64,000 nucleotides of DNA, taken from assembly GCA_008632985.1 (NCBI GenBank), contig QPGO01000062.1:1-64000 (forward strand). The letters run 5' to 3'. Both the position numbers and the translations under genes were made by a program. Numbering within the stretch: the stretch's first letter is position 1; every line of letters starts with the position of its first letter. Below are positions 10,547-64,000 of the stretch, one piece after another. A model generated the notes under the pieces. It ran no database searches. It was given only the letters and a program-made list of their open reading frames with translations, and was not told the DNA's origin. This stretch comes from Psammoneis japonica (Eukaryota).

Positions 10547-11147
10547 TTCTGGATTTTCAATTCTGACGGGTGTTGCGCCAAACTCGTCTCGTTCAATGAA
10601 AGCACCGAGTTGCTTGATGAAGGGGTTACTACTATGCTTTTTGTAGCTCTCAACAACACTGAAGATCAAAACGAAAATCAATACCCATACAGTCAGATCA
10701 TTCCAAGAGTACAGTAGTCGGCGCGGGGCGGGGTCGTCATGGTGAGTTTCGAAAAGTACGCACATGCCTGCGCCATCTCGCTTCTGGCAAGCGGACAGAC
10801 GCCACTTTTCAGCGCCAGGTTCTGTCAGAGCAGCAGAGTGGCTGCATCACAGTGGAAGGGCGCTCTGCTCCAGCCAGAGACACATCTCAAGAGATGCAAG
10901 TGGCTGTCAGAGCAACAACAAGATCTGTGGGAGTGAGTTTTTTCTTTTCATGTTGGTGGGCACCTGTGACACAGCTCAGCTCCTCCTCTTGGTCTGGCCT
11001 CTTTTTTGTGTGTGAGGAGGAGGCCACAAAAGCTTTGGCAAGCAGAAGAGGCAGACAGAGAGACATGCATGCAAAAGCAATTCACAAAAAATGCAGCTCA
11101 GAGAGTGCACTGGGCAGGTGCTCCACTCCAGCTGGTGTCAGTCCACC

Positions 11148-14100
11148 TGTCATACGATGGACAGACTGTGCGCGGATGATGACCGGGCCATTTAGATGGA
11201 CGAGCAGATCTCTCTGAGATCTGCCTCTCACTTTCTCATCTGCTGGCACTCGTGTTGTCACAGTCCCAGTGCTTGGGGAGTCTCTCATGCCTCTATCATC
11301 ATTGACCTTTGGCATTCTGTCAGGTTGTGGCCTTGCACTGTGCCACAGAACTCTGCGCCAAGCTTTCTGTCTCGATCCACTTGTTTTGTGAGCCGACCGA
11401 GCAAGCCTCATCGTCTGTTCCAACAACAATTTTTTCTCGCTTTCCCGGCATTTTTCATGATCATAGAAACACACCAGATTTCCATGTGTGCATGACCAAA
11501 AATGCCCTCACCAAGTGAAACCATGGCGTCTCCCGACCTCACAAAGAGGCCGCTCCGACGTCCATCACAGAGATCTGTTGTGAATTTCAAGAACATGCAA
11601 TGATGCCTCATTTCCATGCGACCTTGAACAAGATGTGTGCGGATTCAACATTTGATCTGGACCCATTCTTTGACAATCCAGAACATGCTCAACCGAAGAA
11701 AGATTTTGTTGACATGTTTCGAGATCACCTCGTCAACACGGCGTTCCCACCTTGCACGGTTCATCCTGCGGACATGCAGCCCATCAAGACGATCATGGAT
11801 GAAGCTGCATTCCATGTTGTTGACTCTGCCAGGCCTCGTGCGATCTGCATGATGCGCGCATCTCTCTTGTTGATCATCAAGACCAATCTCCGGAGCCATG
11901 ATCAAATCACACATGTTGTCATCTCTACACACCACATTGACATTGACCCCAACATGATGTGGAACTGTGAGGATTGGAAGGAGTTCTCTGTCACGCCCCA
12001 CCTGCAGAACCCACATCCTGCACCATCATCTGTGACCAGTTCAGGACCTGCAACTGTTGGTGTGAATGACTCAATCGCCACCCTCAACGAGTTTGCGTCG
12101 AGCCATGCTCCGCCTTCTGCTGCCTCTGGCAAGACCTCTGGAACTCCTGCAACTTCCACAGCATCCAAACATCTCTTCAATCCTGACACCCCACCTCCCG
12201 ATGTTTGCACATGCTACGACCGCAAAGAAAGTGGTGCCGTCACCCTGAAGAGCTCTCCAGTCCCTTGTGACCATGGATTCCGCCACTGTGTTGATGCGTC
12301 TGACTGCATCATTCTCAATGATGGCACCCTGTTTGTCATGAGCTTGGCCCCCAACCAGAAGATGCCATTCAGAGAACCTCCAATCTGCCATGACGATTCT
12401 CCCGCTGGGGTTTGTGCATGGTGCCAAAATTTTCAACGTCACTCCTTTGACTCAGGATGCTACGTGCATCCTTTGTGGTGCTTCACCAAGGACCACGGCG
12501 GTGAGAAGGGTTTTGAGATTGGCAACGGCAAAGACGATGACTTGCCCCAACGAATGTATGTTCATTGTAAAGAAGCACAAAGTTCCCTTCACAAGATCCT
12601 TTCCAAGTCTGATGTGTTCCCCAAGAACAGCAAGCATCATCGGATTGTTGCCTCATGCTGTGGCAATGGCCACAAGGCTCTCAAGCAAATTGTCCACGAG
12701 AACCACCCGGCTTTTGATCACGAGGCTGCTGGTTTGGTAGATTCCTGCCCCATTCAAGGAAATCTGTCATTGACGGACTGTCACTTGCGTTTCAAGGATT
12801 TCCCACAGCTGCGTGCTCACATCTTTAATGCGGACTCTACGTTGGATGACTCTCGAGAGATGACTGTTTTTGTCAAGAACATCAAATGCTCCAAGTTCTT
12901 ATCCCGTGCTGCTGGGGATGAAAGGAAGTCCCCCACTGTGCTCAAGAAGTGCACGGATGCGCAGATTGTTGAGACTCTGTCTGACTTCCTTTGTCAGTCG
13001 GATGGTCCATCTCTTGCAACTCGCACGACTCCTCGCAATCCACACCACACATGGGATCGACACCCAGGGGATGCACATCGCACAACTGCCGATGTCAATT
13101 CCTTGACTGTCCCGGATGTCCCTCCCATTGCAGAGGATGCGGATGAGCTGCCAGAAGCTGCCGACATCAATCACTCCCCCGAGGATGCCTTTGACTCCCT
13201 CTGTGCTGAATTGAATGACCTTGACACACCTTCCACAGATGAAGATCGTCTTCTTCATCATGTTTGCTCAGCTTTGGTGTGCAAACTCAAGGTTGCTCCC
13301 ACAGAGGCCTCCAAGAAACCATGCCTTGTTTGTTCTGAAGAACACTTGTTCCATGAGTGTCCTGTCTTGAATGACAACCCGTGCATCAAGGGCTTCCATG
13401 TGTGGTTTTGTCAATTCTTGAAGTGCGAAGCGGCTGTGCGAGCCTCTGAATTTCAAGGACCACAAGGTTTGTTGCCGCCTCATCAAGGACCATCTGATTC
13501 TCCACCTGGTGCTGGTGTCCAGTCTCTGGATTTTCAATTGGGCCGTCACAGCTGGTTTCAGATCTCCGACGCAGCCCATTCTCTGCCCACCGAGACAAGA
13601 CCAATGTCAGCGGGATGACTGTGAAAGAGGGACCAACCGTCTCGTCATCTGCTGCTGTGCTGCCTCTTTCTTCGACGACTGACATGGACTGTGCCCCCCG
13701 ACTTGAAGGTCTCTCCTGACACCACCAAGTTGCCTGATGATGATCCCATTCTCCCTGATGGCACATTGGAGACTGATCCTGTTCTGGACTCTTTAGAACA
13801 GGGGAGGGAAGATTTAGAGGAATGTGAATTTGCCAAGTTTGATGATCTCACCTGTTTTTTCACATTGCTGTTGAGGACGGTTTCGCTGCAGTGAATTCTG
13901 TCCGCGTGGTTGCCCCGCTTGACTCACCACATGATGATGAGTTGGATCCACCAGATCTACTCCGCACTGCCTGCACTGTCAATGGTGTCAAGTTTGCCCC
14001 AAATGAACGCTGTGCTCAACTTGACACTGGTGCTGACATTGCCTGCACTGGAGATCGTGATCTCCTGCATCGACACCAGGCATTTGCTCCTTCTGCCCCA

Positions 14101-15870
14101 TGCCCGCTTGCTGTCAATCCAGCTCTTGGACATGAAGCTGTCCCAGTCGGCTTTGGATGTCTTCGCATCCCTGCGGAGAACTCCGATGGCTGTGTTGAGA
14201 TTTGTGCATGTTGCCACCCACAGCTCCAATCCACCTTGGTTGATGAGCATTTGCCACTCCGTCAGAATGGTGCCCGTTGCATGGGTTGCAACATTGATTG
14301 CATCCTCAAGTTCCATGATCTCGGCACTTGCAAGTTTGTTGCACGGCATGGTTTGCGCAAGAGTCAGGACATTGTTGTTCATGGGAAACTGATCAATGGC
14401 AAGTGTCATGCTCACCCACTCATTCTCCCAAAATCACATGATGAGCCAGATGCATCAATCAAGCTCCTCAAGGCAAGTGACCCCTCCTTTGCGGATGAAT
14501 GTGAAGCGGTCTCGGCCTGCATGATTGAAACATGTCGTGAACACCAACATGATGCTCTCCGCATGGAAAGGAAGTTGATCCCCTGAGCATGTCAAGATGT
14601 CCCGTTTGAGCAGTGTGCCAAGAAGAACATTCCCGTCCAATCCCTCAAGGCTGATGCGGAACGCCTCCATGGCATCAACGTCTTGGACACCCCAGTGATC
14701 ACTGTCTTTACCACGCTCACGAACATGTTGATGGCATCCCCAAGTTTGCACATGGCACATCCCCCCTTGACACTTGCCCCACATGTGTCCGGGCCAAACA
14801 GATGAAGGAACCTGCTGGACCCAATGCTGCTTTGACTGCCACCCAACCCTGCCAAGGTCTCACCGTAGACTTTTCTTTTTCTGGTCTCCACTCCAAGAAC
14901 ACTGAGCATGTCAAAGACCATGTTGGGTTGAATGGCGAGACGTGTTGGATCACCGTTTGTGATTGCGCAATGAAGCACCTCCATGGTGCGACTCGTGTCT
15001 TGAAGGCCACCCCCTTGAATTGGATTCGCCACTTTCTGGAGGAGCACTCGCCAAAATGTCCTGACAAATGTGTTTTTCTGGATCAAGGAGGTGAGTTGTA
15101 CAACAATCCGGCGGGTCAGCGACTCTTCGAGGATGACTTTCATCATGCAATTCATCCCACTGGAAAAGACACCTTGAATCAGAGTGGCCCAGTTGAACGG
15201 AGTCATTTGACCGTTGCCAATGCCATTCGGGCGATGCTTGTCGGTGCAGATTTACCCATCAAGTTTTGGCCACATGCTTTCCATCACTTTGTTTGGATCA
15301 AGAATGCCACACCATCCCGGGGGCAGACTGCTGCTCCGATTGCACTTGCTGCTGGTCGGAAGATGACTTTCGGAACTTCCTCACGTTTGGTTGTCGCGTT
15401 TGGGCACGTGCTTCGAATCACCGTCCAACGAAATTCCGGACTGTCTCCTGCAAAGGGATTTTCTTGGGATGCCTTCCGGACACCACCAAGAATGTTTTGT
15501 GGTGCGACACCGAGACATCGCGTGTTAAGCTGGCCAAGCACATCAGATGTGATGAGGGGATGAATGATTTACCCCAAGACTCCATTCCCCCGAATGTTGT
15601 TCATTTGCAATGCACTCAGGCTGGTGATGCCCTCCCTGCCGACACTGAAGAGACTGCTGTGGATGAACTCCACTTCCATGGTGACCCTTTTGCCAAGACC
15701 ATCACACGCATCATGAAAGGACCATTCACGGATCCCACTCATGGCTTCTCTTCAGCTGTGGATGATCTGCACCAACGTGTTTTCGTCTTGGACATTCAAC
15801 GTGGTTCCCCCGCTGCTCGTCTCTTCTCAAACTTGAAGGCGACCCACAACAAGATCAAAGGCGCGTGTGT
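11148..15870 (+). mobile_element. Ty1/Copia retrotransposon remnant (gag, protease, integrase, PDZ-like segment), truncated before RT and TpA-mutated
   Basis: gag ORF 11600-13618 with knuckle CLVCSEEHLFHEC. Protease AQLDTGADIAC (13891-14586). Integrase FLDQGGELY...GPVERSH...LPIKFWPHAF, then TFGCRVW...KGIFLGC. PR-IN order indicates Copia. The 5' boundary is approximate. Confidence 0.85.
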
Positions 15871-18307
15871 CATGGGCCAAAGCAAGACGGAGAGGTTGTC
15901 TCACAACTGCCATGTGCCCTCCCACCGTTCTGATGACCCCCTTCATGTCTGCCAATTTTTTAACCAAGCTTTCATGGAGTTGCTCACTGCAGCTGCATTG
16001 GGTCCAGATCCAGAGGATGACAACAGCCGTTGGCACCAGTGTGTCAAAAGTGTTTCCCGGAAACATCGTACAATGACATCAAAAAAAAAGGCTGAGACTG
16101 AGCCAGCTTCATCCCTCATTTGCCAAATGACTGCATGCTCCAAAATTTTGAGAAAAGTGTTTGGACAGCACACGGTGGACAATGCTTGCTTTCCACTTGA
16201 CATGGGCGACAACCCATGTGGTGCATTTGGCATGACCGTTGCTGACATGATGCATGTGTTGGAGGCGGGCATTGTCCCTCAAATGATGGAGGCATTCATC
16301 GGAGAGATGTCTGCCAAACAGAAAGAGGAGTGCGACCGCATTGCATCTGAGTTGTTCTGCACATCCCATTGTCGTCCAGGTCAGAGACATGACCACCTGC
16401 GAATTCGAGTTAACGGGGGACTTTCCACACTTGGTCAACTTGCGTGTGACGAGCAGATGGGGAAGCTTCTCGCACTTGCAATCATTGGCCACACTCACGC
16501 TGGTAGAAAACTGCTGGAAAAAAGGTGCGATCCATCCTTTGACAGCAAAAAGAAAAAGACGGCTGATGGCTTTAAAGGAAAGAAGCAACAAGATGAACAA
16601 TTGACCAAATCATCAGAAAGTGAACCCGACGATGAGGACACTGAGCCCGTTGAACCATCCAATGAACAAACCGGCACAACAAACACAAGCCAGGTTGATG
16701 AGAATGCGGCTGTGGCACTTCCTAAAGAGACATGGTCTGATGTCGCCTGCGACCCATCCGATCTTCATCACCGAAACCATGTGATGCAACAGATGCATCA
16801 TCACGGACTTTCTGAATTTTGGGAACCATTTTCCAAGCAACTAGACAACGATCGCTTTTTGTTGTGCCAGAAGATTGCACGGGACAAAACAAAATCGTTG
16901 AGATGGAAACAACGGGCTGTTGAGACTTCACCTGAACAATTGTCAACACCCGGACAACATGGTCACATTGTTGAATCGGTGGATGATCGGGACAACTTTG
17001 TAAGGTGTTCGGATGGACGGCACTGTCCACTCACCAAGTCAAAATCACCAAGCACTGTCATCCATGCGGAAATAGAAAACAAACTTCCTCAAGCTTTTGT
17101 GAAGATGGCAGATGATGAAACTGCAGCCGAAAAATCCATCGATTGTGAAGTTGATGAATTGTTGGACTTGTTGCATCACATGCTGCTTTTCCATTCATTT
17201 TGTCTGTGTGGAAAGGGACTTTATGGAAAAACAGGCAAGGTGGATTTCAAGTGCCGAGTCGTCCTGCTCATGTTCAAGATAAAAGCATGCCTTCATCGCG
17301 CAAGGAACACTCATTTGTTCCGGACCGCCAAGTTCCATTCTATGCTGCATCTTGTTGTCAACTCGTTCCTTCATGGCCAGATTGTGAATTTCTCTGCCAT
17401 GATTGGAGAGAGTCACCTGAAGTTCTGGGCCAAGCTTCCGGCAAAAACTTGCCAGGTTGCACTGGGTGCAGACAATTTCTTGGACCAACTGGTTGTGCGT
17501 TTGCATGACATGGCAGTTCTTGAGAAGGCACACACCCTTCTTGTCCCTTCCACGGTTGGACAGGCGAGCGTAAATTCCTCTGAAGAAAAATTGATGCACC
17601 CCTTGTTTGTTGTGAACAGAACCACACAAACTCACCATCAGTGTTCAGGCAGCAACAAGATCCGTGTCATCCCAGAAACTGCAGAATTGGACTCTACCCT
17701 GCTTGAGTTTTTGTTGTTGCCAACGGAGGAACTTTGCATCAAGCGCGATGAAGCAGTTGTTTGCTCGGAGTTTGCCACACCAGAGAAAGGGATTTTAATG
17801 CGTGGACACCCCAATTGCAACAACAATGGGTTGTGGTGCGACACACCCAGGGTCTCACACGAAGAGGGAACAGGTCAGAAAAAAAGGCACCCATTTGTGC
17901 TCCGTGGTTTCGTGCCAGCTGACGACGGAACAATCCCGCTTGCCGCAGGACAGTCATGCAAGGAACAGACGAAGACGTTGCGTGACAAGTCTTCCAACGG
18001 TGTGGTCGAGCACTGGGAACTAGAAACAACAACTGTTGGTCATGGCAGAGAGTCTCAGATGATCCCAAAATTTTGGCATGCTGGCAGAGACGCAACAGCA
18101 GTGGGTGGTTTCTCTGTCCTTGTTCCTGACAACTGCAATGAAGACAACGTTGAAGACTCGAACTCAATGTTGTTTGTTGCAGACAGACACAATGACTGGC
18201 CGAATTGTTTCCTGTCCAACAAAGTGATCCAGCTTCACCCAGACAAACGCAGGAAGCGAGACAAGGAGAAACGACAATGCACCTTGGGAAAAAGGAAATG
18301 TTTGTAA
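15870..18307 (+). mobile_element. C-terminal part of a Plavaka/CACTA(En/Spm)-like transposase, TpA-mutated pseudogene
   Basis: Motifs VDNACF..DMGDNPCGAFGMTVADMMHVLEAG, KFHSMLHLV, NFSAMIGESHLKFWAKLPAK and RGHPNC(Y)...WC(Y)D. Family assigned from motif recall. Confidence 0.6.
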
Positions 18308-18364
18308 AGAGTTCACTGCAAAAGGTGTGTCAACCTGTCTAACAGCATCCATTGGCACCACTCA

Positions 18365-18473
18365 TTGTTGCTCCTTCTGTCAGCAAGTGCATTGAAGAGT
18401 GTTGTTGCTCCTTCTGTCAGCAAGTGCGTTGAAGAGTGTTGTTGCTGCTTCTGTCAGCAAGTGCATTGAAGAC
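18365..18473. repeat. Tandem repeat, 3 x 37 bp
   Basis: Unit ttgttgctccttctgtcagcaagtgcattgaagagtg. Confidence 0.9.
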
Positions 18474-18774
18474 TGATGGCGTGCCAATGTGTCTAAAAGC
18501 ACTGGTTGGTCCCGCTCAGTTTTGATTCTCGGAATTGGAACAAACCCTTCTGCTTTGTCAAGTCATGCTTTGACTTGACAAAAGAGCAAACATCGACATG
18601 AGTTGACAAATCATGCCATTGATCACAAATGAAATGTTCAACCCTGTGTTCCGATTCGTCGGGCCACAAACTGCTTGTTGACTTAGTCGAATGTTCCACA
18701 GAGCGAACGGGTGACACACCCCGATCGCTCGACACGAGGCAGCATGGATCCTTGCGCAACTTGTTGTTCATCGA

Positions 18775-21700
18775 TCAACATTCCCTGCAGCCTGGTTGGT
18801 CACATTTAGCCCAGGTTGGTCTCCTGCCATTTTTTCTTGCAACTTCAACTGCATTTTGAACAACTTCCCTTGCCCTCAACGAGGAGATCTGTTCGCCTCT
18901 CTCGTGTGCTTCTTTCCCAACAACACACATGTCAACAAACAGATAAAATCCAGAATCACCCTTGGATGTGCGCGCCACTGCTGCATTTTGAGGGGGGATT
19001 TGTCCCATGACGGAAGCCGATTGGATCATCAAAGCCCCACGCACATCGGCCAACCTTGTGCTTGGCAGCCACTGCTCTGGCAGTTTGTTCTTCCTGGCTT
19101 CAAGACAAAACAAAAGTTCCCCAGCAGATTCGTGACTTCCATCAGTGTCCTTTGCCCGCAGAACATCAAATTGACTGGAAATGAATGCACAGTGGATTCG
19201 CACCTCCTCAATTTTGGTCAAGGAAGGATCCATTCGTTGAAATCTCTGTAACGTTGAACACGTCACTCCACTCACATCACCGTTGTTCTTCAATTGCTTC
19301 ATCATTGACACCAATTGGTGGCACAACAATCCCATCTCATTTTTCTGCAACAAAGTTTTCATTGATTCTTGGTTTTCGGGTTTCACAGATTCTTTCAATG
19401 CAACAAGAGCAACAAGAGGTGCACCACTGAATTCCACACCCACAAATGCCGCGAATTCGTCTCCGTGGTGAAAAGCAATGCACCCCTCACAGTGGAATGT
19501 GAAATTGAACCAGCTGTGGGTGATTGATCCCAGGAGGAGGTCTCTGTCTTTGCCTTTGTCAACAAGCAATCCCAACATGCCTTTGTGGTCGCCACTGTCA
19601 AATCGCTGCAGGTGATCCCTGACACACTGGGTCGCGCACTGAATGTCATCTTTGTTCTCCACAGTCGAAAGGTTGAAGCTGTCTGTGGAGATTCCAGTTG
19701 TTCGAACAGGGCATTTGCATGTTCACAATCCGTCTTGAACAGCAGCTTTTGTAACTGAAGTCCGACAATCTCTCGGTTGTACGATGGATGGTCAAACGTG
19801 GTGTTGGTGATGGGGACCGAATGCCTTTTCAGCTTGTCCACCAAATCTTTGCCAATGTTGCAATCCCGCCAATCATCAATGAAGACAACACCGTTGCTGA
19901 TGTCATCCAAGAGGAATTCCCACTCATTTTCCCCGTCGAAGTGTGTGAAAGCAAAGCCGGCAATGTGAGATCCTGCCTCATCAAGCTTTGACACACCTTG
20001 CAATCATTCTGGGCAACCCAACCAGACTTGGCATTTCTCAGACAACCTTCGTCTTTCCTCCAACATCACTCCTTGGGAAGACCTTGGTGTTCCCTGCAAA
20101 GCTTTTTGGTGCATGATGTGAACCAAAATCACGGTCAGTTGCAAAATCCACTGTCTGCATCTCGGAGAGAGGTCCTTTTCCTTTTCCATTGTTCCAGGCC
20201 TTGCAACACCTGACCCACCATGGCGGCTCCAACCTTGCGCAATCACTCCATTCACACCAAAATCTTTGGCAACAGTCCCTTGAAATGAATGGTCAAACTT
20301 TGCTGCAAGCAAAAACTCTCTTGCCAACCCACTGCTCAGTCCCTGTTCAACAATGGTTCTGAGCTGCATCAACAAACCCAATCCAAGAATTCTTTTGTCA
20401 AACTTGCATGACCCGAAGACGTTGCCGTCGGCAATTCCCTCCATTGTGTCTGGGTTCAAAATGAATGGACGAGTTGGATCGCTTGCCCTGCACGGATGTT
20501 TGGCATCCGAACGTAGAATCTCTACCTTGCTTTGCAGGTGCCGACACATTTGCTTTGAAGCATTCAGACCCATCACACCATGTGCTGTTGCATGCAGCTT
20601 GAAGTGGATGACGAGGGAACACCTTGTTCCTGCCCTGCCTGGTTTTTCAATGAATGGAATGTCATTGTCGAACGTGTCAGATGGCTTGTTGGACTTCCGG
20701 TGAGGTTGTTTCAGGTGGAATTTTCGCTTGAGTTCTCTTTTGTTGTTCGCATTTTTGCTGATGCTCTTGGGGCGCATTAAGGACAAACCCCAGTTCTTGC
20801 CACCAACCCCATGTGGTTGGTCCTTCTGCCTCCAACAGCTGAGAAGATCGGCGTTGCACTGTTTGATTTGCTGGAGGAGAGATTCTTCGCTGGTTTTCTT
20901 GCTGATTTTTGTCCCACATGCTGAGTCAGGCACGTCTTTGCAGTCAAGATCAAACTGCACAGCATTCCGGATGGGTGCAGGCCTGCAATGTGGGCATCGC
21001 CGACAACCCTCGTGTCTCTTAAGACTGCATGTTGGACAATGCACACAGTTGTCACCGGTGAAAACTGGCACACAGCAAGGGTCCTTTCTTCTTCCAGTCA
21101 ATCCGATGCATTTGACTGGACCCCCGAAATCTGGAAAATGCGCCAAGGTGGCTTCATCTGTTGCTGTGAGGCATTTCACTTCTTTGTGTTTTAACTCACA
21201 ATCCTCAATGCATTCTTCCCTTGTACAAAACTTTCCGCAGGCAGAGATGTCTGCTTGTGCCTCGTCTTGAACAATGGGGACCTCGTCGCATGCTTGCTCT
21301 TCATGCAAGAAGCACACTGGGTGCTCTTCCGACACGCGTTGTTTCTTCCATTAATCCAAAACTTGGAAAACGCAAGATTGCACGCAGGCAGGAAGAACAT
21401 CCCATTGTCCGTCAGCGACCGCAGCAGCTCCCTGAGTGCATCTTGGAAAAAAGGTCCCTTTAGAACTGAAGCCGAGAGATGGGCCGGGTGTGAATGCACG
21501 CAGTCAAAGCAAATGTGATCGAACTTTGTCTCTTTGGATGATCTCTTCCATTCCGCTGATCTGTGCAAACTTAGAACATCACACTCCATGTGCTTTGGTG
21601 AGGAAGTGCAGAGCATCCTCTTGTCAATTGTGCAAACGTCACATCCAAGATCCACCAGACGTTTAGTTTGAATGCCGTCGCGTGCATCTTTGTCACTTCC

Positions 21701-22651
21701 ATTTAAATCACCACCAACTTCCACGCCAATTGCCAACAATCTGCTGGCACAAATTGGATGTTCGTCAACCATGTCATCTGTCTCCGCCCATGTGGAGTCA
21801 TTGTCATTGTCATGGGCAGCCACCTCAACGGAGTCGATGCCGGTGGCAATCGTTTGACTTTGATCATTGCCATCATTCTAGAAGAGACATCAACATGCAC
21901 TTTGTCAGGTGGGGAACCGACAGGAAAGGGAACCAGTGCGACAGATGAAATCCCTCACCGGCGATTGTTCTTCACTCTCTGCAACAGTCCAAATTTGTTG
22001 TTCGTCATCCATGACATCCGTCTCCGCCCATGTTGTGTCATTGTCGTCGTCTTTGGCACCTTCCACACAGGAATTGACACCAGTTGCAATCGTTGGAGCT
22101 TTGGCTGGGGTGTCATTCTAGGAAACATCAACAATGACTTTTTCAGGTAAGAAACAGATGGGAATTGGAAGCAGCGCGCAAGATGCAATCCCTTGCCTGC
22201 ACCGCTGTAGATCTTTTGCATTTTTTGTTTTGGAAGCAGCGAGCATCAATGATTTTTTTGCATGCCTTTTTTTCTTTCGTTGAGCCAGCTCTGGCAGGGC
22301 AGCCTCCTTCAAAGCCAATCTAACGTAGTTTGGGTGTGCCGGCCATTTTGCAAATTCACCAAGGTGGTTTGGGTTGTGTGCATTGCTCTTCCCACTGCTC
22401 TTGAACGTAAAGATTTTCGCATCAAACATCATCAGCACAATGCCACGGATTGAGTGATCTGTCAAACCACTTTTTTTGAGTGACGAACAAACATGACCGC
22501 GTTTGTTTACCCAACGTGTGGGAGAACAACACAGCCTCAATTTGGTGTCAAGGCTGTTTTCTGTGCCAAACGGGGCCAGATGCACCGGCGGGGGACAACG
22601 CCCAGATGGATCATTGGTCAACACTGCAGGTTGAGTGGGGTGGAATGTCAT
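18775..22651 (-). pseudogene. Broken cargo/accessory ORFs of a large transposon; 21191-21823 is possibly methyltransferase-like
   Basis: Co-directional minus-strand ORFs (18775-19662, 19395-20003, 20004-21335, 21191-21823) with protein-like composition apart from Tyr loss. ~135-bp internal duplication, 21760-21897 vs 22000-22136. Confidence 0.45.
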
Positions 22652-23574
22652 CGGGAGAGAAGTGCGATGTGTCAGACAGAAAAGAGATTCGTTGGTTCTG
22701 TTTCAGTGACGTGGCCTAACAGGTGAGGGATTGGGTGTGATTCTTCGGGGTGGGATCATTTTGAGGTTGTTGTTTTGCAAAGGGAATGACAAGGCTGCGG
22801 AAGACAAGAAACAGAGTTGCCCAAACGACATCTGTTCGCTGCTCAACATGAGTTGATCAGCGACTTGGACAAGATTCGGGAGAGTGTGGCTTGCTGTGGG
22901 AGATGCACTTTGTGTCACGATGCTGCACAGGCTGGCATCAAGTGCACAAGTAAAAAAGTGGTGCCAAAGGCATTCATTGCCAGACACATGCATCAACAAA
23001 AAACTGATGCCAAATTCTTCTGTCAACACACATGTTTGACAACAGAAAAGTGACGCCGAATTGCTTTGTCAACAAACAGTTGCAACAACAAAAAAGTGAT
23101 GCCAAGTTGCTCTGTTGACAGACATGTGCATTGCTGAAAAAGTGACAGTTTGTTTGTGGTGCGGAATGCACGGTGGATGGAAGCTTTTGCTTTGTGTCTG
23201 CTGCTGTGGTGATGTGAAAATGTCTCACATCATCACCAACAGGATTGTGAGCAACAAAATTGTTTTCTGTGCTTTTGAGATGGCTGGGATGACCCATTTG
23301 ATGAGATCATTCAGCAAACAGGATCGACGAAGATCACATCACACATGACCATTTACGAAAAAAACGTCTGTGGTGCACCCGACAGACAGACTGCCGTTGT
23401 CAAAACATCACACGGGACTGTTTGCGAAAAAAACACCCGTGGTGCACACGAACAGATGGACCGCCGTTGGCAACACACATTTAGCGAGAAAGCCGTTTTT
23501 TTGTTGGAAAGCAATGGGTGCGGACTTTCGCTGGATTGGGTCTGTTCCACTGAAAGAAAAAGACTGGGTGCCAT

Positions 23575-24375
23575 TTGATTTGGCAGAACAGGCATTTTCA
23601 GAGAATGGCGCGGAAGTGTTCTGTGAACGGATGCTGGAAATTTGCCCGTTGGCCAACAACGTCATGCCAGAAACATGGCAAGTTGCTGACACACCTGGGC
23701 AAAATGAAATCTCATGTCGTCAAGAGCAAGAAGGCGGGGTCCAAAGAAAGAGAGCACCAGGAAAGAAAAAAAGGCTGCTTGCAAAAATTCAAAACACCAC
23801 CACCCCTGCTCAACAAGATGACAACACTTGCAAACAAGGCACCAAGTGGGAAGGGAGAAAAGGAAGGACACCGTTTTGTTGGTGAGTTCACCATTGACAA
23901 AAAGGAAAAGGCGGAAGGCATTGGGTTGGCAGAAAAAATGTTGGAGTTGATTCCTGGCTTTCCCCTGGCAGGTGATTTAAGCAGAAAGATGTCCTGGCAC
24001 ACAGTGGTGAACGCTCCTGCTTCAAGTTCAAGATCTGACTTCTGGTCAAAGGCGGAAATTCATCGCAATTACGTGGAAACAAAATCATCACCTGGTGACA
24101 AAATTTTCACCATGTTTCTGTTCCTCGATGACACAACGGAGCACAATGGTGCAGTGGAGATGTGGCCGGATGGTTGTGAGGCAACATTGAATGAGAAGGA
24201 ACGCAAAAGACACTTGGTCAGGTTGGGTTTGGAAAAACAATTGCTGGTTGGAGAAGCAGGCACTGCATTTGTTTTTGATGCAAGAATGTTGCACCGAGCT
24301 TTGCCTGACAAAACGAACTCGGATCGAAGGAACATGGTGTGTCTAGTCCACAATTTCGACACAGCAAGCATGTGA
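23575..24375 (+). pseudogene. PhyH-like 2OG-Fe(II) dioxygenase inside the transposon block, probably mutated
   Basis: EIHRNY (HxD position reads HRN), IFTMFLFLDDTTEHNGAVEMWP, GEAGTAFVFDARMLHRALP...SDRR. Confidence 0.7.
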
Positions 24376-25925: not shown

Positions 25926-27103
25926 TTGATCTGTGTGGTGTCACATGAAGTCACCATGAGTCCTGCGGTGGCGGCCTTGTTGCATGCACAAAGAAACGAA
26001 CATGGGGAATTGAACAGATTCCAGCATGCAGGTGGCGATTCAAGTTCGGCGGTGACTCCCACAGAGGGATGTCTTGTGTTGGATCGTGCACCTGCGGTGG
26101 GCAAGAAATTGATGGCATCCATGTTGACTGAGGTTGTCAATGAGAGTGTTTGGCCATGTTGCAAGTTCACAATCTTCAATCATGAACTCGCCGTGGGAGG
26201 AGATCACATGAAATTGGTTCTGCAGGAGTTGAGGAGCATGGTGTCTTCACCGGAGAAGTTCTGGGAAGAACACAAAGAGGTGTTCAGGACCAAACTCAAC
26301 CGAAAGAGGAATGATGTGCAGGACAACATCAGGAGGAGAATGACAGGCAAGCAGATGTGTGCGTGCCAGTGATTGTGTTGGAGGCGATTGTCTGACGGGA
26401 TGAGTGTCTCTTCCTTGACATTGTCTGTGCAGTTGCTGCTTTAGAGGGATTGCTGGTGGATTGCGAAGACTTGACAAAGGGAAGAAATGACAAGGACACA
26501 CGCGCGTGGTTCTTGGAAACTGTGGCGCCGACAGTGGTGGGACAAGTGCAGTTTGGCAGAAGCACAACCGACATGCTTCAGGAATGGCTTTCGGTTTCGT
26601 CGGAGGAGTTTGCTCTGCCAGTGCACTTGAACTGCTGCAACAAGGTGAAGGACACGGCAGAGAAATTGGAAAAGGAAGAAAATGTTGCAAGGAGAAGAAA
26701 GCCAACTGTGAAAGATGCTGCTCCTGCAAAGTGCATGGCACAGGCGGCAGGGGAATCGGCAAAGAGGAGCCAAGGATGGAGCAAGGAGGGGATCAAGAAG
26801 TGCAATGACCCACATCAGTGGGTGGTGAAAGACAGAGAGAACAACCAGGGATTCGGTGCATGGTTCAAGGAGAGAAGGCAAGAGAAGACAAACTTGTCTC
26901 AGGAGGAAAACAAGAAACGCAAAAGAGAGGAAAACAGAAAGGAGAGAGAGGAAGGATGGGCGGCGCCAATGGGAGAGGACCTGCCATTGCAGGCGGTGGC
27001 TTCAGGCAACGGAGCGGCAGCAAATGGCGCAATGGCCACCAACCAAACTGGTGTGCAAACACAATTTGAAACAAACAACAAAATCTGGACAAGTGAAAAT
27101 TAA
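25926..27103 (+). pseudogene. Two-exon transposon-associated ORF (GWSxEGxxxYNxL type) with a mutated splice donor
   Basis: ORFs 25926-26372 and 26450-27103 are separated by an intron-like segment 26347-26432 (gcaagc...tgtgcag). Motifs LSVSSEEFAL and GWSKEGIKKCN. Confidence 0.55.
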
Positions 27104-57676: not shown

Positions 57677-58151
57677 TTGATTTGTAAATTAGAGCATTGT
57701 GCTGACATTCAGAGCGCTGCTGTGATTGTGTCCATTCAATCAGAGTGCACTGTGCTCGAAGAATTGAGTGTAAACGAAAGTACAACGAAGTTCAAAAGGT
57801 GAAAATTATGAGAATTATTTCTGCGCAATCATTTTGGGTTTCTCCGAACGGGTTCTCAACAGCCCGAACCTTTTGCACTGCTCCCACAGACAAAAGGCCT
57901 TTCGGAGAATGTGATCGTGACGACAGATTGTCCGGACACGATTGACATTGACACGTAAGATGTCAACATCATCGTACGATCGCATTTGCGATTCTCGACT
58001 TCCAATCACTTCTGTGTGACTGATCTGTGCTTCGTACGAACCCACGATTGACGTGCGATTGAAGCACACTTTTGTTTGACATGTGGGCACACATGTGCAA
58101 CACGCACATGACAATGCATGTTGCATTCGCCTCCCTAATTGCACATTAGAG

Positions 58152-61100
58152 TTAGTCGTTAAACGGCATTGTTCGACGAATGTTGACAGTGTCAATGACG
58201 TCACCGCGTTTGATCTGCACTGTGCCATTGGCACGCACCATTGTTGTCACATGCGGTCCAACACAGGGCTGTTCTAATTTTTGCGAGTCTTTCTCGAGTG
58301 GTGTCTTTTCTCCCACTCTGTGCGTGTGAGGAGTGCGTCGAGCATTCTCTCGAGCGTCATTTTTATTTGTGATTTCTTGTTTTCGCTGCTGGACCAATTT
58401 CCAGTCCGCGACATGTTGGACGTCAAATGTCATGTCTCGTTGAAGACTGGTTGTCCTGGTGTAGCTTGCGCAGCAGCATGACACGCAGAACGTGCTGCAA
58501 ACGCCACCGCTGACAGCATTCCAGCGAAAGGATCCTCAGCGTCTAGAGGTGCATGTTGCAAATCAAGCGCACGGAGCATGCTCCCCAGTGCTTGATGCAC
58601 GCGTTCAACAATTGCGTTTGCTTGTGGATTTCATGCAGTTGTGGGCTTGACTTCAATGCCACAATCATCTTGCACCATTTCTCTAAATTGGTGTCCGATG
58701 AACTCACTTCCACGGTCACATGTAATTGACGATGGCCAAGGATGTCTGCTCAGCCATGTTCGTTCTAACAGTCCAGCTGCAGTTGTGGACTCCTTATTTG
58801 GGATTTCCACAACTTCAAACCATCCGGTTGCTGGATCGATCACAGTTAAACATTTCAGGACTGGGGGTTTTTCCTTTCCCTTACGACGTATTTTGTATGG
58901 CCCAATGAGGTCCACACACAGTCGTTCCCATGGTACGGATTCTGCGCACTTAGGAGGTAAATGTCCATGTTTCTTGTGTTTCTTTTTGAATTTTTGGCAC
59001 GTCTCACATCTCGACACGTATTTTCGTATGTCTTCACGTAAGGTGGACCACCATAGGTGTTGTGAGATTGTTTCTTCTGTTCGATTTATGCCAGGGTGAA
59101 GAAGGTACGTATGATACCAATCTATCACTGCCTTTTGTAACGTCCTCGGGACGACAATTTTATCCTTATGACATATGAGCAACCGGTCTCGCTCGCCTCC
59201 ACGAAAAGTCTTCGTATGAAACGTCTTATTTGACAATTGGGAGAGAATGTCTTTGTCCCGTTTTTGTTCATAATCAAGAACTTTGTAATTTAACGGAAAG
59301 ACATTGTCGTAGGATTTTGGTAGGACCTTTTCAGCTAGCTCTTCTGTGCTGAGGGTTTCCATAGGTTCTATTTTCTTCATAGTAAGTCGGCTAATCGCGT
59401 CTGCGACAATATTTGCCTTGCCCTCAAGGTATATTATTTTGGGACTGTATTCTTCTATTATTAGACGCCAACGCATGACTCTGTCCGTTGTGAAATTTTT
59501 GTGTGTGAGATTTTTGTGATCCGTATATATATTTATCTGTTGGCCAAACAGTATATTGCGGAACTCTTTTAACGTCTCCACTGTGGACAATAGCTCTTTT
59601 TCCGTTGTAGTATAACGCGTCTGCGCTCCATTCAGCTTGCGGCTGTAGAAGGCAATTGGTCGGTTTTTCTGAGTAATAACCGCCCCCAATTGAGAATTAC
59701 TAGCATCGGCACATGTCTCAAAGGGGATGTTAAAATTCGGGTGTGACAATAGTGTGTCTTTGGAGATGATGCGCTTCATATTTTCGAAGGCTTTTTGTTC
59801 TGTTTCGGTCCATTGCCACTTTGCTTGGGTAGAAGTGAGTTTGGCTAAAGGAGCTAAAACATGAGATCGTCGAGGCCACATGTCTCGACAGCAGTTGATC
59901 ACACCGACAAAGCGCCGCAATTCCTTGCGAGTTTTAGGAGTTGCGATCGCGTGAATCGCTTCTACTTTTTTTGGAATCGGACTGATGCCCTTGCGGGTGA
60001 TGTGAAAGCCTAGATAGTCTACTTCGGGTTTAGCGAAAAAGGACTTCTCGGCGTTGACCTTCAATCCTTCTTGTTCCAGGCGTGAGAACACCGTTTCAAG
60101 CTTCTTGAGGTGGTCTTGAAAATCACTTTTTGCAAGACACAATGTGTCGTCAACGCAAGTTCTGACGAACTCCAGACCTGCCATGAGCTCACTCATGTGC
60201 TCTTGGAAAACATCTGGAGCTCCACAGATTCCCATCGGGAGTCTACAGTGCTCACATTTGCCCCAAGGCATGACGATCGTGCACAAGCGACGTGCACGCG
60301 GCGTCAATTCGACATGACAACATCCCATGTTTAAATCTGGGGACGTTGCACACATGAAGCCTTCAAGCTTCTGCAGCATGTCCTGAACATTGGGCAGAGG
60401 AAACGGAGTGCGAACCAACCTCTCATTTGGCTCACGAAAGTCGGACAAGAACCGAACTCTGCCATTTTTCTTGGGTTGAACAAAGGTTGGAGCCGCCCAT
60501 TCAGAACAATTTGTTTTTCTTAAGACTTTCAACTTGCACAGTCTTTCAACCTCCTTGCGAGTGGTCGCCTCCAAGGCTTGTGTCACGGGAAATGGTTTGG
60601 CATGACACGGACTCACGCCCGATTTCAACTTTAAATCCACCGGTTTCCTGGTCCATTTGCCCAGAGAACCATCGAAAAGGTTTTCAAATCTTTTTAAGAG
60701 GAAGTTCAGCTGCTTCTGCTCTTCAGGAGTTAGATGAGCAGCTGCTGCGGTCACATTGTTGAGGTTTGCAGCGTGACAGTCTGAGTCAAGGATCCGATTG
60801 ACCCTGTCATTAAGACCAATCACTGCACGAGATTCCTCAATGTGATCGGCAATCAACTTAAAAACATCGGCATCGAAGAGTGCATCAACATTCTTCACAG
60901 GAGCAGTTGCATCTTCCCATTTAATCTCTTCATTCGAGAAGTCCAACATTGTCCCAAGACTTGACATTAAGTCGCGTCCCATGATCATGTCATGATGACT
61001 CGAAGAAGAAGGGGAGTCATCAACACACGCCGTTGCTTCAATCATCTTGTGCTCATCAAATTCGGGCAAGGAGAATTGGATCTTACATCGACTGTCAGTC

Positions 61101-61222
61101 GTGAAGAGCCCTCCTTTGGTTTCCCAGAGTTTGGTGGCGGATGCTTTTGTTCTGAGTTTCCGCGTGAATTTGCGCAAAATTGTGGTTGACGATGTTCCGC
61201 TGTCGAGGAGAATGCGCAGAGG
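58152..61222 (-). pseudogene. Gypsy pol (protease, RT, RNase H, integrase)
   Basis: LLDSGTS; PMG...CVDD; ADAS...EKELL...YTDHKNL; H..L.HPG...C..C; DRGSEF. In-frame TGA at 58631 in PTTA*NPQAN, and TAG just upstream of the protease motif. Confidence 0.9.
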
Positions 61223-61350
61223 CTATTTTTCGCCTCACCTGATGAAGTGTTCATATGGGCGACAACTGCTGGACTAGCATGAATTACTTTGGCCCTTTTT
61301 CTGGGCTTCCTAACATCCAGCAGAGCGCAAGACTCCTCTTGCGGTGCAAG

Positions 61351-62541
61351 TCATTCCTCAGAATCACTGCGCGTCATTTTTTCAAACTGACAATTTTCCT
61401 CGTCAAGGGTGTCAGAATCACAATCTTTGCTCTTGTGTTTTTTGTCATTGTTCGAAGAACTCGCCTTGAGTGTTTTTTGAACTGCTTGGATCGCCATGGC
61501 ATTCAACTCTTCTTTGCGAGCGGCGTTGTCGTCATCGCGACGAGACCACGTGCGATTGCCATTTGAACGGCGCCGTTTCGGGTCGGGTTCACAGTTCCCA
61601 CGGCGTTCTTTCGCAAGTCTTTTGATCGACCAGCACTTGTCCGTGTTATGAGTGGATTTCTCGCATGAAATGCACCACTTCTCGGACTGAGATTTTTCGG
61701 CACCATGTTGGTGACCATTTTTGGAACCACGTTGGGAACCACTCTTGGCTTTTGATGCAGCACCGCCACTGCCATCAGCCTTGGCATGAATGCCATCAAA
61801 TGTGTCTTCTGCGACCTCCAGGCGCTCCAAGAACTCAACCAACTCGTCACAGGTATGTTTCAAAATTTCGAAACCCTGGACGGTCGACTGACGCTGCCAC
61901 TTTCGAGGTGCAAGGTTGAAGAGGATGTCCTTGAGCTCGTCGTCCTCGATCTTCTGTTCCTTCCCAAAGGGAGGATAGAACTTGAGGTCTTTGTTGACTT
62001 CCTGGACCCAAGCAGCAATTTCGCGTACTTTCATGGACTCCGGCTTCTTGAGATCACGACGCAAATAACGTTTCTGCACCGAAAGTGAGTTCTTGGGAAA
62101 CACATGCCTCGTGAGATGTTGTGGGCATTTCTCGAAGCTTCCTTCCGCAGATTCGTCTTCAAGGTTCGCTGCCGCATTCTCGAAAGCACGCAGAGCGTCT
62201 CCTTGAAGTAACATGCGCATGAGACGAAACTCATCAGATTGCTTCCTGATGTTCTGGCCCACTGGAAGTTGATCGTAGCTCTTGAGAAATTCGATGAACT
62301 TGGGGACACCTTGTTTCTTGCAGTGCTCAACATTGATGGTGCAGGTGCGGCTATCCTTCTTCTCGGGATGAAAACGTTGCTCCATCTTGAGGTGCTGGCT
62401 CGGTTTGAGGCTCTTCGGCTCGGAGTTCGATTCCAGCGGTTGAGGGACGATTTTCTCCTGCCTCAACGAAGTTTTGGCGTTGGTTGCATGAGGTGAAAGC
62501 TTCATCTTGAACTTGTTGCCTTCTGTGGTGTGTGTGCACAA
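61351..62541 (-). pseudogene. Gypsy gag
   Basis: QKRYLRR..KKP and zinc knuckle CISCEKSTHNTDKC; located between the 5' LTR and pol. Confidence 0.85.
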
Positions 62542-62924
62542 TGCACTGTGCTCGAAGAACGAGTGTAAACGAAAGTGTGACGAAGTTCAAAAGGTGAAAA
62601 TTATGAGAATCATTTCTGCGCAATCATTTTGGGTTTCTCCGAACGGGTTCTCAACAGCCTAAACCTTTTGCACTGCTCCTACAGACAAAAGGCCTTTCGG
62701 AGAATGTGATCGTGACGACAGATTGTCCGGATACGATTGACATTGACACGTAAGATGTCAACATCATCGCACGATCGCATTTGCGATTCTCGACTTCCAA
62801 TCACTTCTGTGTGACTGATCTGTACTTCGTACGAACCCACGATTGACGTACGATTGAAATGTGCTTTTATTTGACACATGGATGTACATGTGCAACACAC
62901 ACATGACAACGCATGTTGCAAGAG

Positions 62925-64000
62925 CACGACTCTGAATGATGTTTGGATGCCCGTGGAATCTCCATTTAATTAGAGCAAAGCTCTGAATGAACAATGGACA
63001 TCCAACTAGAGCAAAGCTCTGAATGAACAACGGACGACGACAGCCTCTCCATTCAAACAGATCACAACTATGAACAAATTTGCTGATGCTCTGAACAACT
63101 GTCATTTACGAAGCTGTGCTTCGATTGACTCTGTCAACAAACACATCCGCCGAACCCTGACTGTGCCGGTGAAATCAATCCCAAGCAATTGCACATCATG
63201 TTGCGTCGTGCGCATGTGTTGCGTTGCCTCATTGTTTGTTGTTGTTGTTTCGGGTTGTCCTTCGGCGCCGTTTGTTAGATGCAGCTGACATGGTCTTTTG
63301 ACAACACTGCACACACAATGCAAACCTGCAATTGCAAGAACCATTCAATGCATTCATGCAAACCCAAACTGCCTTTCTTTGTCCAACCTTGCAACTGCTT
63401 GATCCAAAAACAACATCACACTTTTCGCCACAGCATTTTGCAGGGAACAGTGGGTTGGTTTTGAAGCACGCTTGAGCAAAATATTTTCCGTCATCTTGAT
63501 GGACCAAGGCATGGAACAAGTGAGCCTCCTCGCACTTGCACTGCAAACACAAACAAACAAACACAATTGGTTTGTGTGCGGGAACAAGACAACACAACAA
63601 CAGGCATGCCAAATCAACAATGACGTTTGCTCTGCACCTGCGAATTGCAAGCAGTTGTTTGATCCACTTGAGCCACAACGAGTGTTGCAGTTTTGTGTGT
63701 GCGTTTGTCATTTGCTGTCTTTGTCTTTGTTGCAAACAAACAACAAAGTGAGAGGTGATGTTTCCAAGATGCTGCGCACAATCCGCACGACTTCATCATG
63801 CATTCTCACCGCTTTGTTTTGCAATGGATTTGACAATGGTTTAGAGTGGTTGGCTGGTTGAGTCTGCAAAAGAAATGCCATCATGACACACATTGAATGC
63901 CGTTAGATCAACTTCTCAATGGCAATCCGGAGCACCAACAATGCTCTCACCTTTTCATTTGCGCCATTTGCCATCGTCTCTTCGACCTTTCTCATTGCAA
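62925..64000. repeat. TpA-depleted repeat with a Cys-rich (zinc-finger-like) ORF remnant at 63229-63735 (-)
   Basis: Composition; C.GEKC...VWVC.NA...C.FALC..C pattern. Cys counts are inflated by Tyr>Cys changes. Confidence 0.45.

Follow-up and report, generated by a model that had tools for sequence, protein, structure and literature searches.

A footprint of TpA-directed hypermutation in integrated transposon DNA of the diatom Psammoneis japonica

The closest described system is that of the rhizarian Bigelowiella natans, in which integrated viral DNA undergoes TpA>TpG/CpA hypermutation (Mettrop et al., bioRxiv 10.64898/2026.01.13.699255, 2026). According to this preprint, 231 of 302 nuclear mutations in mutation-accumulation lines fell in integrated nucleocytoplasmic large DNA virus (NCLDV) and virophage sequences, and 230 of these 231 were A>G or T>C, all at TpA. 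The de novo rate there was episodic and about 1000-fold above background, coding-sequence sets depleted of TpA were enriched in transposable element (TE) domains, and an ADAT2-like deaminase was proposed, though not proven, as the agent (bioRxiv 10.64898/2026.01.13.699255). Here, we describe a comparable footprint in 64,000 nucleotides of the diatom Psammoneis japonica (assembly GCA_008632985.1, contig QPGO01000062.1, positions 1 to 64,000, forward strand), which we refer to as the window. In our assessment it is about 80% probable that integrated transposon DNA in this window undergoes a targeted, DNA-level TpA>TpG/CpA hypermutation, whose agent would be an enzyme and most likely an adenine deaminase. 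The targets include long terminal repeat (LTR) elements of the Gypsy and Copia types, a Plavaka-like DNA transposon, and further repeats. A preliminary description of this DNA was aware of no account of the process and asked for a literature check; the B. natans preprint is such an account, of the same hypermutation. Our literature searches turned up neither a report of TpA loss from the TEs of diatoms nor any work following up that preprint.

TpA loss across the window

Observed/expected (o/e) ratios of TpA, TG, and CA were scanned with sliding 2-kb windows, and blocks were set by a 400-bp segmentation. In the sliding windows, TpA o/e drops from 0.5-0.76 to 0.00-0.14 over 11-27 kb, 34-41 kb, and 44-45 kb and stands at 0.17-0.23 around 1 kb and 60-64 kb, with TG and CA o/e reaching up to 1.4-1.96 in the low-TpA windows. 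The segmentation gave six low-TpA blocks, covering 35,050 of the 64,000 bp at a TpA o/e of 0.07-0.25, and five host stretches at 0.56-0.72, which bears out the preliminary claim that TE blocks are poor in TA and rich in TG/CA while the genes between them are normal. These blocks are as follows, with narrower limits in brackets.

1-1550 (1..1330): relic or repeat, one TA (213) before 1326; TpA o/e 0.079, CpG 0.10, TG 1.85, CA 1.82; none of the 6 open reading frames (ORFs) tested in 1-1330 matched Pfam
10651-28200 (10758..27900): largest hypermutated block, with a Copia remnant, a Plavaka-like transposase ORF, and further multi-copy DNA; 103 TA in 17,550 bp, TpA o/e 0.090, CpG 0.55
33801-42000 (33900..41900): hypermutated block that holds another Copia relic, on the minus strand; 35 TA in 8,200 bp, TpA o/e 0.066
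43651-46100 (43750..45930, edges read from TA positions): hypermutated block between host genes; 18 TA, TpA o/e 0.12, CpG 0.29; none of the 5 ORFs tested in 43750-45930 matched Pfam
57501-58800 and 60001-64000: the two remaining low-TpA blocks
62921..64000, plus 57480-57743 on the other side: older low-TpA DNA, the insertion target of a Gypsy element; 9 TA in 62921-64000 and 3 TA in 57474-57743; no Pfam match in 62921-64000

The most extreme stretch is at 36-41 kb (TpA o/e 0.00-0.08, CpG 0.04-0.24). At the left edge of the main block the change is sharp, with TAs 5-80 bp apart until 10757 and the next one at 11153, in agreement with the start of 10760 given in the preliminary description. The right edge of this block is gradual (27100-27900), and all edges other than its left one are blurred over 0.3-0.9 kb. 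For one TE edge at least, the process comes to a halt in the space of a few hundred bases. As for the earlier range of 10760..64000, it does contain hypermutated blocks, but also takes in about 29 kb of normal host DNA and misses the block at 1-~1330.

For a comparison of dinucleotides, strand-symmetrised counts from the four older blocks (29,750 bp, 164 TA) were set against those from host DNA (28,950 bp, 1,222 TA). The TA o/e is 0.59 in host DNA and 0.09 in the old blocks (0.14 of the host value, or a roughly 7-fold depletion), that of CG is 0.96 and 0.44, and that of TG/CA is 1.18 and 1.67, respectively. The remaining dinucleotides lie within 12% of host values, among them AA/TT (1.19 in host, 1.24 in blocks), AT (0.92 and 0.85), and TC, which is not depleted (1.08 and 1.03). 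From host to TE blocks, TA frequency falls from 0.0422 to 0.0055 and CG from 0.0521 to 0.0266, while TG+CA rises from 0.1467 to 0.2081, such that a combined TA+CG loss of 0.0622 balances a TG+CA gain of 0.0615. About 59% of this gain comes from TA and 41% from CG; the TG/CA excess previously put down to TpA is thus a TpA product for the most part, with CpG decay supplying the rest. GC content is not lowered in the blocks, and per 1000 trinucleotides TAA falls from 9.7 to 2.4 and TAG from 8.9 to 1.4. In the largest block TG and CA are nearly equal in number (1755 and 1763), and a runs test for strand-coordinated clusters of TG versus CA was negative in every TE block (z from 0.2 to -1.8; -0.5 in the largest). 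TG and CA are randomly interleaved and, at saturation, show no sign of long same-strand tracts.

The CpG>TpG/CpA decay is a slower second layer in the older blocks, separate from the TA loss. CpG o/e is 0.10-0.55 in the older blocks, whereas a young Gypsy element has a CpG o/e of 0.98 alongside a TpA o/e of 0.34, from which it follows that TA loss is the faster process, by several times in the same blocks. Such a CpG layer is what the methylation of TEs known in diatoms would lead one to expect (PMC9998398).

Host DNA in the window includes a duplicated pair.

32010..32787 (minus strand) and 42108-42879: host paralogue pair, 778 aligned bp at about 86% identity, TpA o/e about 0.6

The two copies differ at 110 positions (73 transitions and 37 transversions), only 10 of which set TA against TG or CA. 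The pair is not hypermutated, although it may be protected by selection or may be too diverged. The preliminary term 'repeat-targeted' is not borne out: this pair is not hit, and the stretch with the strongest depletion (38.5-41 kb) consists of single-copy DNA. A more apt name for the target would be TE, foreign, or silenced DNA.

The TA-free DNA is also seen in contigs that we built from the reads of one sample and placed on positions 21001-41000. Here, contigs at a depth of 62-77 (56.9 for a host contig) match TA-free DNA with 0-2 differences and reproduce the stretches 35988-37084, 37266-37904, 38006-38338, and 38513-41000. With regard to the earlier call for a check in raw reads, contigs built from reads carry the substitutions, at single-copy depth. 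Half-depth TG and CA variants, as expected from the strand-specific misreading of a modified base, were not seen in these read-derived contigs. Over 21-27.7 kb and 33-36.3 kb, summed contig depth reaches 870-8035 and thousands of contigs are 85-99% alike, which points to high-copy families in these two regions; depth is 1475-5167 over 21.0-27.7 kb, as against 57-75 in most host bins. Same-genome copies differ from the window by 1008 transitions and 297 transversions, with adjacent TG<>CA pairs at 21607/8, 22699/700, 25362/3, and 33989/90. At a threshold of 85% likeness or more, the 38.5-41 kb stretch, where depletion is strongest, counts as single-copy.

The Gypsy element and the direction of change

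The Gypsy element, together with a host gene that serves as an unmutated control, comprises the following features.

57744..62920 (minus strand): complete young Gypsy (Ty3) LTR retrotransposon, partly hypermutated, with a 4-bp AGAG duplication on both sides
57744..58125 (minus strand): LTR copy A, 7 TA left
62540..62920 (minus strand): LTR copy B, 11 TA left
58631..61222 (minus strand): pol ORF, with Pfam RVT_1, RT_RNaseH, Integrase_H2C2, and rve; catalytic YVDD reads CVDD
61351..62586 (minus strand): gag-like ORF upstream of pol inside the element, TpA o/e 0.00-0.21, no Pfam match
46808..48091 (minus strand): host methyltransferase gene (PF05175), control

The LTRs were detected by direct and purine/pyrimidine-coded self-comparison, and the AGAG duplication was read from the alignment. 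The LTRs of one element are identical at integration. In this pair, 27 of 382 aligned columns differ and all 27 differences are transitions, with an identity of 99.7% in purine/pyrimidine code and of 96% in letters over a 300-nt core. By dinucleotide, TA is found in both LTRs at 4 sites and in only one of them at 9, where the partner is TG (4 times) or CA (5 times); TG faces CA at the same site 5 times and CG faces TA once, while CG is present in both at 22 sites and faces TG or CA at 3. TA- or CG-derived dinucleotides account for all but 3 of the differences. Since almost all differences sit at TA-derived sites and include both products, the process acts on integrated DNA and on both strands. 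The five sites with TG in one LTR and CA in the other fit independent hits on an ancestral TA, as double hits are expected when about half of the TA sites are hit in each LTR; an ancestral CG at these five sites does not fit, given that roughly 90% of CG is still intact. Of the TA sites, which number at least 19, both LTRs retain 4, in comparison to 22 of 25-26 CG sites. Moreover, 8-12 of the at least 19 TA sites are changed per LTR, as opposed to 3 other transitions in 381 sites, which on a rough reading suggests a mutation rate at TA sites in the Gypsy element about two orders of magnitude above that of its other sites.

The polarity of these changes was assessed for Gypsy pol against 120 homologues (51-59% identity), using the 397 columns conserved at 80% or more. 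Of the 66 mismatches, those at conserved tyrosines stand out, in that 16 of 24 such columns read Cys or His (10 Cys as TGY and 6 His as CAY), with 1 Phe and 7 kept. A further 16 mismatches are single TA>TG or TA>CA steps, these being I>V (4), K>E (3), M>V (2), and T>A (1), each after a T, as well as L>P via CCA (3), I>T via ACA (2), and I>M (1). The 5'-T preference that had been singled out as a check is thus borne out, since a T precedes every I>V, M>V, K>E, and T>A change and AA/TT is not depleted. When each homologue was taken as the query, Cys or His occurred at none of the Tyr columns in 90 of 120 cases, at one in 26, and at two in 4. Similarly, when the host methyltransferase was set against 120 homologues of its own, 3 of 112 conserved columns were mismatched, and none of its 3 conserved tyrosines was changed.

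The Gypsy peptides quoted in the preliminary description are all found, namely, CVDD (60146-60157), MGCCH (60314-60328), KCEH (60248-60259), NCCRDMW (59876-59896), and CATSPDL (60332-60352), as are the Copia peptides IFLGC (15458-15472) and GLRCKL (36553-36570, minus strand). The family consensus at these places is Tyr or Leu. To this list can be added HVDD at 37342-37356 on the minus strand. As a composition baseline, 79 metagenome loci of the same Gypsy family have a TpA o/e of 0.56-1.06 (median 0.73), though the scan used Tyr-containing patterns (DLNMGYYH and P[IV]AFYSRKL) and so gathers unmutated relatives only. As judged from these alignments, the TA loss in the Gypsy element is mutation and not native composition. 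The 32 polarised changes, ordered by hand along pol, show no clustering. The element as a whole is hit patchily, with a TpA o/e of 0.72-0.92 at 58944-59844 and of 0.00-0.43 in the rest. This spared patch of about 0.9 kb could stem from conversion by an intact copy, from local protection, or from patchwise targeting.

Other mobile DNA and host genes

The remaining mobile DNA that can be named in the window, along with its Tyr-poor environmental relatives, is listed below.

14655..15880 (plus strand): Tyr-free Copia remnant with gag-pre-integrase and integrase C-terminal (SH3) regions (PF13976, E 1.8e-6; PF25597, E 1.2e-6)
15863..18268 (plus strand): part of a Plavaka-like (CACTA/KDZ-type) transposase-like ORF, whose residues 223-1024 match P0243 (E 1.7e-98) and others
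36.5-37.4 kb (minus strand): second Copia relic, by motifs only (GLRCKL at 36553-36570, HVDD at 37342-37356)
23554..24372 (plus strand): ORF similar to PhyH-type 2-oxoglutarate- and Fe(II)-dependent (2OG-Fe(II)) oxygenases (PF05721, E 1e-5, 26.4 bits)
P0287 and P0392-P0395 (JGI/IMG), P0276, P0307, P0345, P0370, and P0389 (ENA): Tyr-poor environmental Copia fragments

One long ORF, 15197-18304 (1036 aa; Y 0.1%, C 4.9%, H 5.4%), reads in a single frame from the Copia integrase remnant into the Plavaka-like transposase. Its residues 52-228 share 45-52% identity with Copia integrase segments, for which the conserved-Tyr test had 1 usable column. With the Plavaka-like part as query, no more than 2 matches came from a word-based search, and an exhaustive search was required; among 12 relatives tested, 2 matched PF18759 (Plavaka), one with 23.3 bits (below the cut-off of 26.3) and one, just above it, with 26.9 bits. 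The DNA transposon of the preliminary description thus gains Plavaka-like relatives, but its identity as such is tentative, with PF18759 matched by 2 of 12. By comparison, we count the identities of the Gypsy element and of the Copia remnant at 14.6-15.9 kb as firm by domain and sequence similarity, and likewise that of the second Copia relic, by motifs only. The purine/pyrimidine-coded self-BLAST found LTRs for the Gypsy element and none for the Copia relics.

Long stop-to-stop ORFs are abundant (95 of at least 110 aa, mostly in blocks, in all six frames, overlapping, and up to 1036 aa), because TAA and TAG have been lost. Across the blocks, 60 of 63 ORFs tested had no Pfam match, as is expected after such damage. 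Hence, the earlier label of 'transposon-derived' holds for the identified Gypsy and Copia DNA, but most block DNA carries no TE domain. The PhyH-like ORF has 3 TA in 819 bp and a depth of 2900-4700, lies about 5 kb from the Plavaka-like transposase ORF, and may be transposon cargo. Fungal Plavaka/KDZ elements are known to carry dioxygenases of the TET/JBP type, but the PhyH-like ORF falls in another oxygenase family.

Of the 151 relatives taken to represent those of ORF 15197-18304, 12 have a Y/(Y+C+H) below 0.15 and six are without any Tyr; all 10 of the Tyr-poor relatives that were looked up come from JGI/IMG or ENA metagenomes. When copies from one 90%-identity cluster were compared with an intact-looking 1422-aa Copia polyprotein, the main difference was Y>C, with 8 of 44 differences in one copy and 9 of 48 in another, whereas Y>H numbered 0 and 1; T>A, I>V, and V>A were also present. 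At the protein level, then, these environmental Copia fragments appear to bear the same signature, but with a bias to the sense strand. They are only distantly related to the element in the window (35-48% identity).

Host genes have few and short GTAAGT..AG introns. For the methyltransferase there are 286 relatives, and the 6 of 6 rows that carry an organism name are diatoms (Chaetoceros twice, Fragilaria, Thalassiosira, Discostella, and Mayamaea) at 36-48% identity. By sequence, the window would be placed as diatom-like on this one protein; an atlas search with a host protein was of no use for its taxonomic placement. Contigs from a further run, X2, skip 30932-31009 (78 nt) and 31316-31412 (97 nt) on the plus strand; both stretches start with GTAAGT and end with AG and can be read as two short spliceosomal introns of a plus-strand host gene. 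Run X2 is probably RNA-derived, though listed as 'DNA?'. Its cover is 0-1.7 on TE blocks beyond 33.7 kb, with none on 21.0-27.7 kb, and was not used as evidence of silencing. A third run, X3, yielded no contigs here.

Several host ORFs merit mention in their own right. The paralogues (32011-33114 and 42109-43167, both on the minus strand) are Cys-rich, apparently secreted proteins of no Pfam family, which lie about 10.1 kb apart with a hypermutated block in between. ORFs 50662-52476 and 53638-55206, both on the plus strand, have repeated Cys-rich modules (…VPGC.G.G…YCY…) and mucin-like linkers rich in Pro, Thr, and Ser; one of the two has a C-terminal hydrophobic stretch, and they look like a tandem cell-surface family. 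At 28718-29683 there are five diverged copies of a 120-nt unit (63-79% identity to the reference copy), situated in host ORF 28027-30096 (minus strand), which has repeated ...G.ELW.YDP... modules and thrombospondin type-3 repeats.

Candidate agents and comparison with known systems

The strand-symmetric A:T>G:C mutator at TpA that the preliminary description had proposed is supported by the mass balance, the Tyr>Cys/His changes with their controls, the LTR spectrum, and the read contigs. What is observed is a post-integration process acting on both strands, with near-complete TA loss and with host genes spared, including the duplicated pair. The survival of TA relative to host DNA also depends on its neighbours, being 0 for ATAT (0 versus 184 in host), 0.027 for ATAC, 0.059 for ATAG, 0.071 for ATAA, 0.107 for GTAC, 0.12 for CTAC, 0.15 for CTAG, 0.20 for GTAA, 0.355 for CTAA, and 0.487 for TTAA. 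An additive T-A-N model describes these data with an R2 of 0.93 (host baseline) or 0.90 (baseline of the 79 Gypsy loci), its rates by N being 2.5-2.7 for T, 1.2 for C, 0.75-1.0 for G, and 0.3-0.65 for A. This fits a flank rule of TAT > TAC ~ TAG > TAA or, equivalently, of a T in N-T-A with a 5' A > G ~ C > T. By the genetic code, a TA>TG/CA change cannot turn a sense codon into a stop, and it removes TAA and TAG.

As a mechanism, we envisage an enzyme that modifies nucleic acid sequence-specifically and would be recruited to silenced or foreign chromatin. There, a polynucleotide adenine deaminase would convert A to inosine, read as G, at TpA on either strand, with the target A read as 5'-T-A-N-3' and N preferred in the order T > C ~ G > A. 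Elements are inactivated by missense, that is, by Tyr>Cys/His changes, including that of YxDD, and, where the preceding codon ends in T, by I/M>V, K>E, and T>A. TadA/ADAT enzymes act on the A that follows U33 in tRNA, and an adenine deaminase is favoured on this account as well as because one has been proposed for B. natans.

Several points weigh against this reading. The evidence is a sequence footprint, and A>G is indistinguishable from T>C on the other strand, so that adenine deamination and thymine oxidation are equally compatible with it. A 3' preference of T > C ~ G > A does not match the known neighbour preferences of ADAT/TadA or ADAR. Moreover, the flank rule is barely visible in the young Gypsy element, where counts are small, and the NTAN frequencies of host DNA serve only as a stand-in for the composition of the ancestral TEs. 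The sparing of the 0.9-kb Gypsy stretch at 58944-59844 also counts against it. Lastly, most block DNA has no recognisable TE domain, and for 1-1330, 43.7-45.9 kb, and much of 18-27 kb TE origin rests on copy number or is assumed.

The main rival to the deaminase is a TET/JBP-type dioxygenase that would oxidise T at TpA in TE chromatin to 5-hydroxymethyluracil (5hmU) and then to 5-formyluracil, which mispairs with G and would give T>C; we deem it unlikely, albeit not negligibly so. The inseparability of A>G and T>C at a palindromic TA favours it, as does the mutagenicity of 5-formyluracil, and the flank rule would then be one of 5' A > G ~ C > T before the T. A 2OG-Fe(II) oxygenase-like ORF does lie in the multi-copy hypermutated DNA, though of the PhyH family and not TET/JBP. 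Against this, 5hmU by itself forms a normal pair with A and would have to be oxidised further, and we know of no TET/JBP gene or 5hmU in diatoms. In dinoflagellates, 5hmU is reported to mark silenced TEs and to take the place of T with a preference for TA and TC (PMC11572971), which is in keeping with thymine oxidation as to the TEs and TA, yet TC is not depleted here (1.08 versus 1.03).

A putative epigenetic adenine mark at the self-complementary TpA of TE chromatin, such as N6-methyladenine (6mA), decaying to A>G in parallel to the decay of 5-methylcytosine (5mC) to T, seems to us improbable. It would account for why only TA and CG decay, these being the two palindromes that lead to TG/CA, and both only in TE blocks. 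However, TA decays faster than CG, as the LTR sites surviving in both copies attest (4 of at least 19 versus 22 of 25-26). Eukaryotic 6mA, for its part, is reported at ApT and not TpA, and is not known to be notably mutagenic.

Highly improbable, in turn, is an ADAR-like hyper-editing of UA in retrotransposon RNA, followed by reverse transcription and integration. ADARs favour a 5' U (bioRxiv 10.64898/2026.01.13.699255), and changes in the environmental Copia family are mainly sense-strand A>G (Y>C 8 and 9 versus Y>H 0 and 1, with T>A and I>V). Yet the two Gypsy LTRs, copied from one RNA, differ by 27 transitions on both strands, and in Gypsy the 6 cases of Y>H come close to the 10 of Y>C. TG and CA show equal enrichment and are mixed at random, the DNA-transposon-like ORF and non-coding DNA are equally affected, and AA is not depleted, though ADAR also accepts a 5' A.

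Least credible of all, to the point of being hardly worth entertaining, is an artefact or a native composition, in the form of base-calling or polishing errors, TA-poor families, GC-biased gene conversion, or CpG decay alone. In its favour, and to the detriment of our own reading, the read set is one sample that is maybe the assembly's own, with a library type not on record; moreover, CpG decay supplies about 40% of the TG/CA excess. Nevertheless, the independently built read contigs repeat the TA-free DNA at full single-copy depth without half-depth TG/CA variants, related Gypsy elements have a TpA o/e of 0.56-1.06, and invariant catalytic tyrosines are replaced. Gene conversion would also have lowered AA, AT, and TT, which are unchanged, and CpG decay alone does not accord with the TpA of 0.34 and CpG of 0.98 in the young Gypsy element. 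Error-prone repair of the Pol-eta type (WA>WG), an option in the preliminary description, fails on undepleted AA/TT (1.19 in host, 1.24 in TE), while repeat-induced point mutation (RIP) and APOBEC are rejected because the change here is A:T>G:C, with TpA lost and not gained.

Returning to the hypermutation of integrated DNA at TpA, its significance would depend on how widely it is shared. That TpA-directed editing is an ancient defence, common at least to the Rhizaria and stramenopiles of the stramenopile-alveolate-Rhizaria (SAR) group and a mirror image of RIP, is a tentative proposal that we rate at slightly less than an even chance. If true, a natural enzyme (a DNA adenine deaminase or thymine dioxygenase) would edit either strand of chromosomal DNA at 5'-TA(T>C~G>A)-3', diatom TEs of every class would, up to saturation, lose Tyr codons, TATA-like signals, and TAA/TAG without ever gaining stops, and the Tyr-free Copia fragments in JGI/ENA metagenomes would be its footprint in further unsampled organisms. 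Should the diatom and Bigelowiella systems be the same, there would be a second RIP-like defence, of opposite chemistry, in two distant and ecologically dominant algal lineages, and its origin, targeting, and cost would become testable in genetically tractable diatoms. The agent would also be a natural enzyme, tightly specific for TA, that turns A:T into G:C in chromosomal DNA; to our knowledge, DNA adenine base editors have so far relied on laboratory-evolved TadA. For annotation there is a hazard of spurious six-frame ORFs, of products that escape Pfam and word-based searches, and of Cys/His-rich 'hypothetical proteins', and Tyr-free, Cys/His-rich metagenome ORFs may be such relics. LTR divergence would overestimate the age of a TE about nine-fold, with 27 differences counted in place of 3.

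With regard to B. natans as described in the preprint, the likeness is close, in that changes are almost exclusively A:T>G:C, confined to TpA, with TpG and CpA as products, and found in foreign DNA only, the rest being normal. The long-term footprint of clustered low TpA with high CpA+TpG is shared too, and the blocks here, the young Gypsy element excepted, pass the thresholds used there (Rho TpA <= 0.43, CpA+TpG >= 1.52). In contrast, the host is a rhizarian there and a stramenopile diatom here, and the targets are NCLDV and virophage sequences there but LTR retrotransposons and a DNA-transposon-like ORF here. TA loss is near saturation here (o/e 0.00-0.1), as against 0.45 in an NCLDV region of B. 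natans, where de novo mutations were measured while only a footprint is seen here. The preprint's main text contains no flank rule, no evidence from LTRs that the process acts after integration, no accompanying CpG decay, and no mention of diatoms.

RIP resembles the diatom process as a dinucleotide-specific, defence-like transition hypermutation that riddles transposons, spares genes, and has sharp limits. Nonetheless, RIP makes TpA from CpA and yields stops and AT-rich DNA, whereas the diatom process destroys TpA and slightly raises GC; RIP hits any duplicated DNA above a few hundred bp, and the duplicated host genes here are not hit, though selection or divergence may account for that; and the chemistry of the cytosine-methyltransferase-like RID cannot yield A:T>G:C. 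The decay of 5mC at CpG, reported for diatom TEs (PMC9998398), likewise turns a palindromic dinucleotide into TG/CA in TE DNA only, but it cannot remove TpA and is slower here. ADAR and APOBEC3 have in common with the present case deaminase-type, neighbour-dependent transitions against selfish elements. ADAR, however, acts on RNA and one strand, and APOBEC3 makes C>U changes on cDNA, as opposed to A:T>G:C changes on both strands of integrated DNA with a near-absolute TpA specificity. Pol-eta, as in the second phase of somatic hypermutation, also gives A>G at an A after T, but its WA target includes ApA, and AA/TT is unchanged here. Set beside these systems, what is new here is a diatom as host, TA loss near saturation in both LTR and DNA transposons, proof from the LTRs that the process acts after integration, a dependence on flanking bases, a change that creates no stop codons, and the CpG decay that runs alongside.

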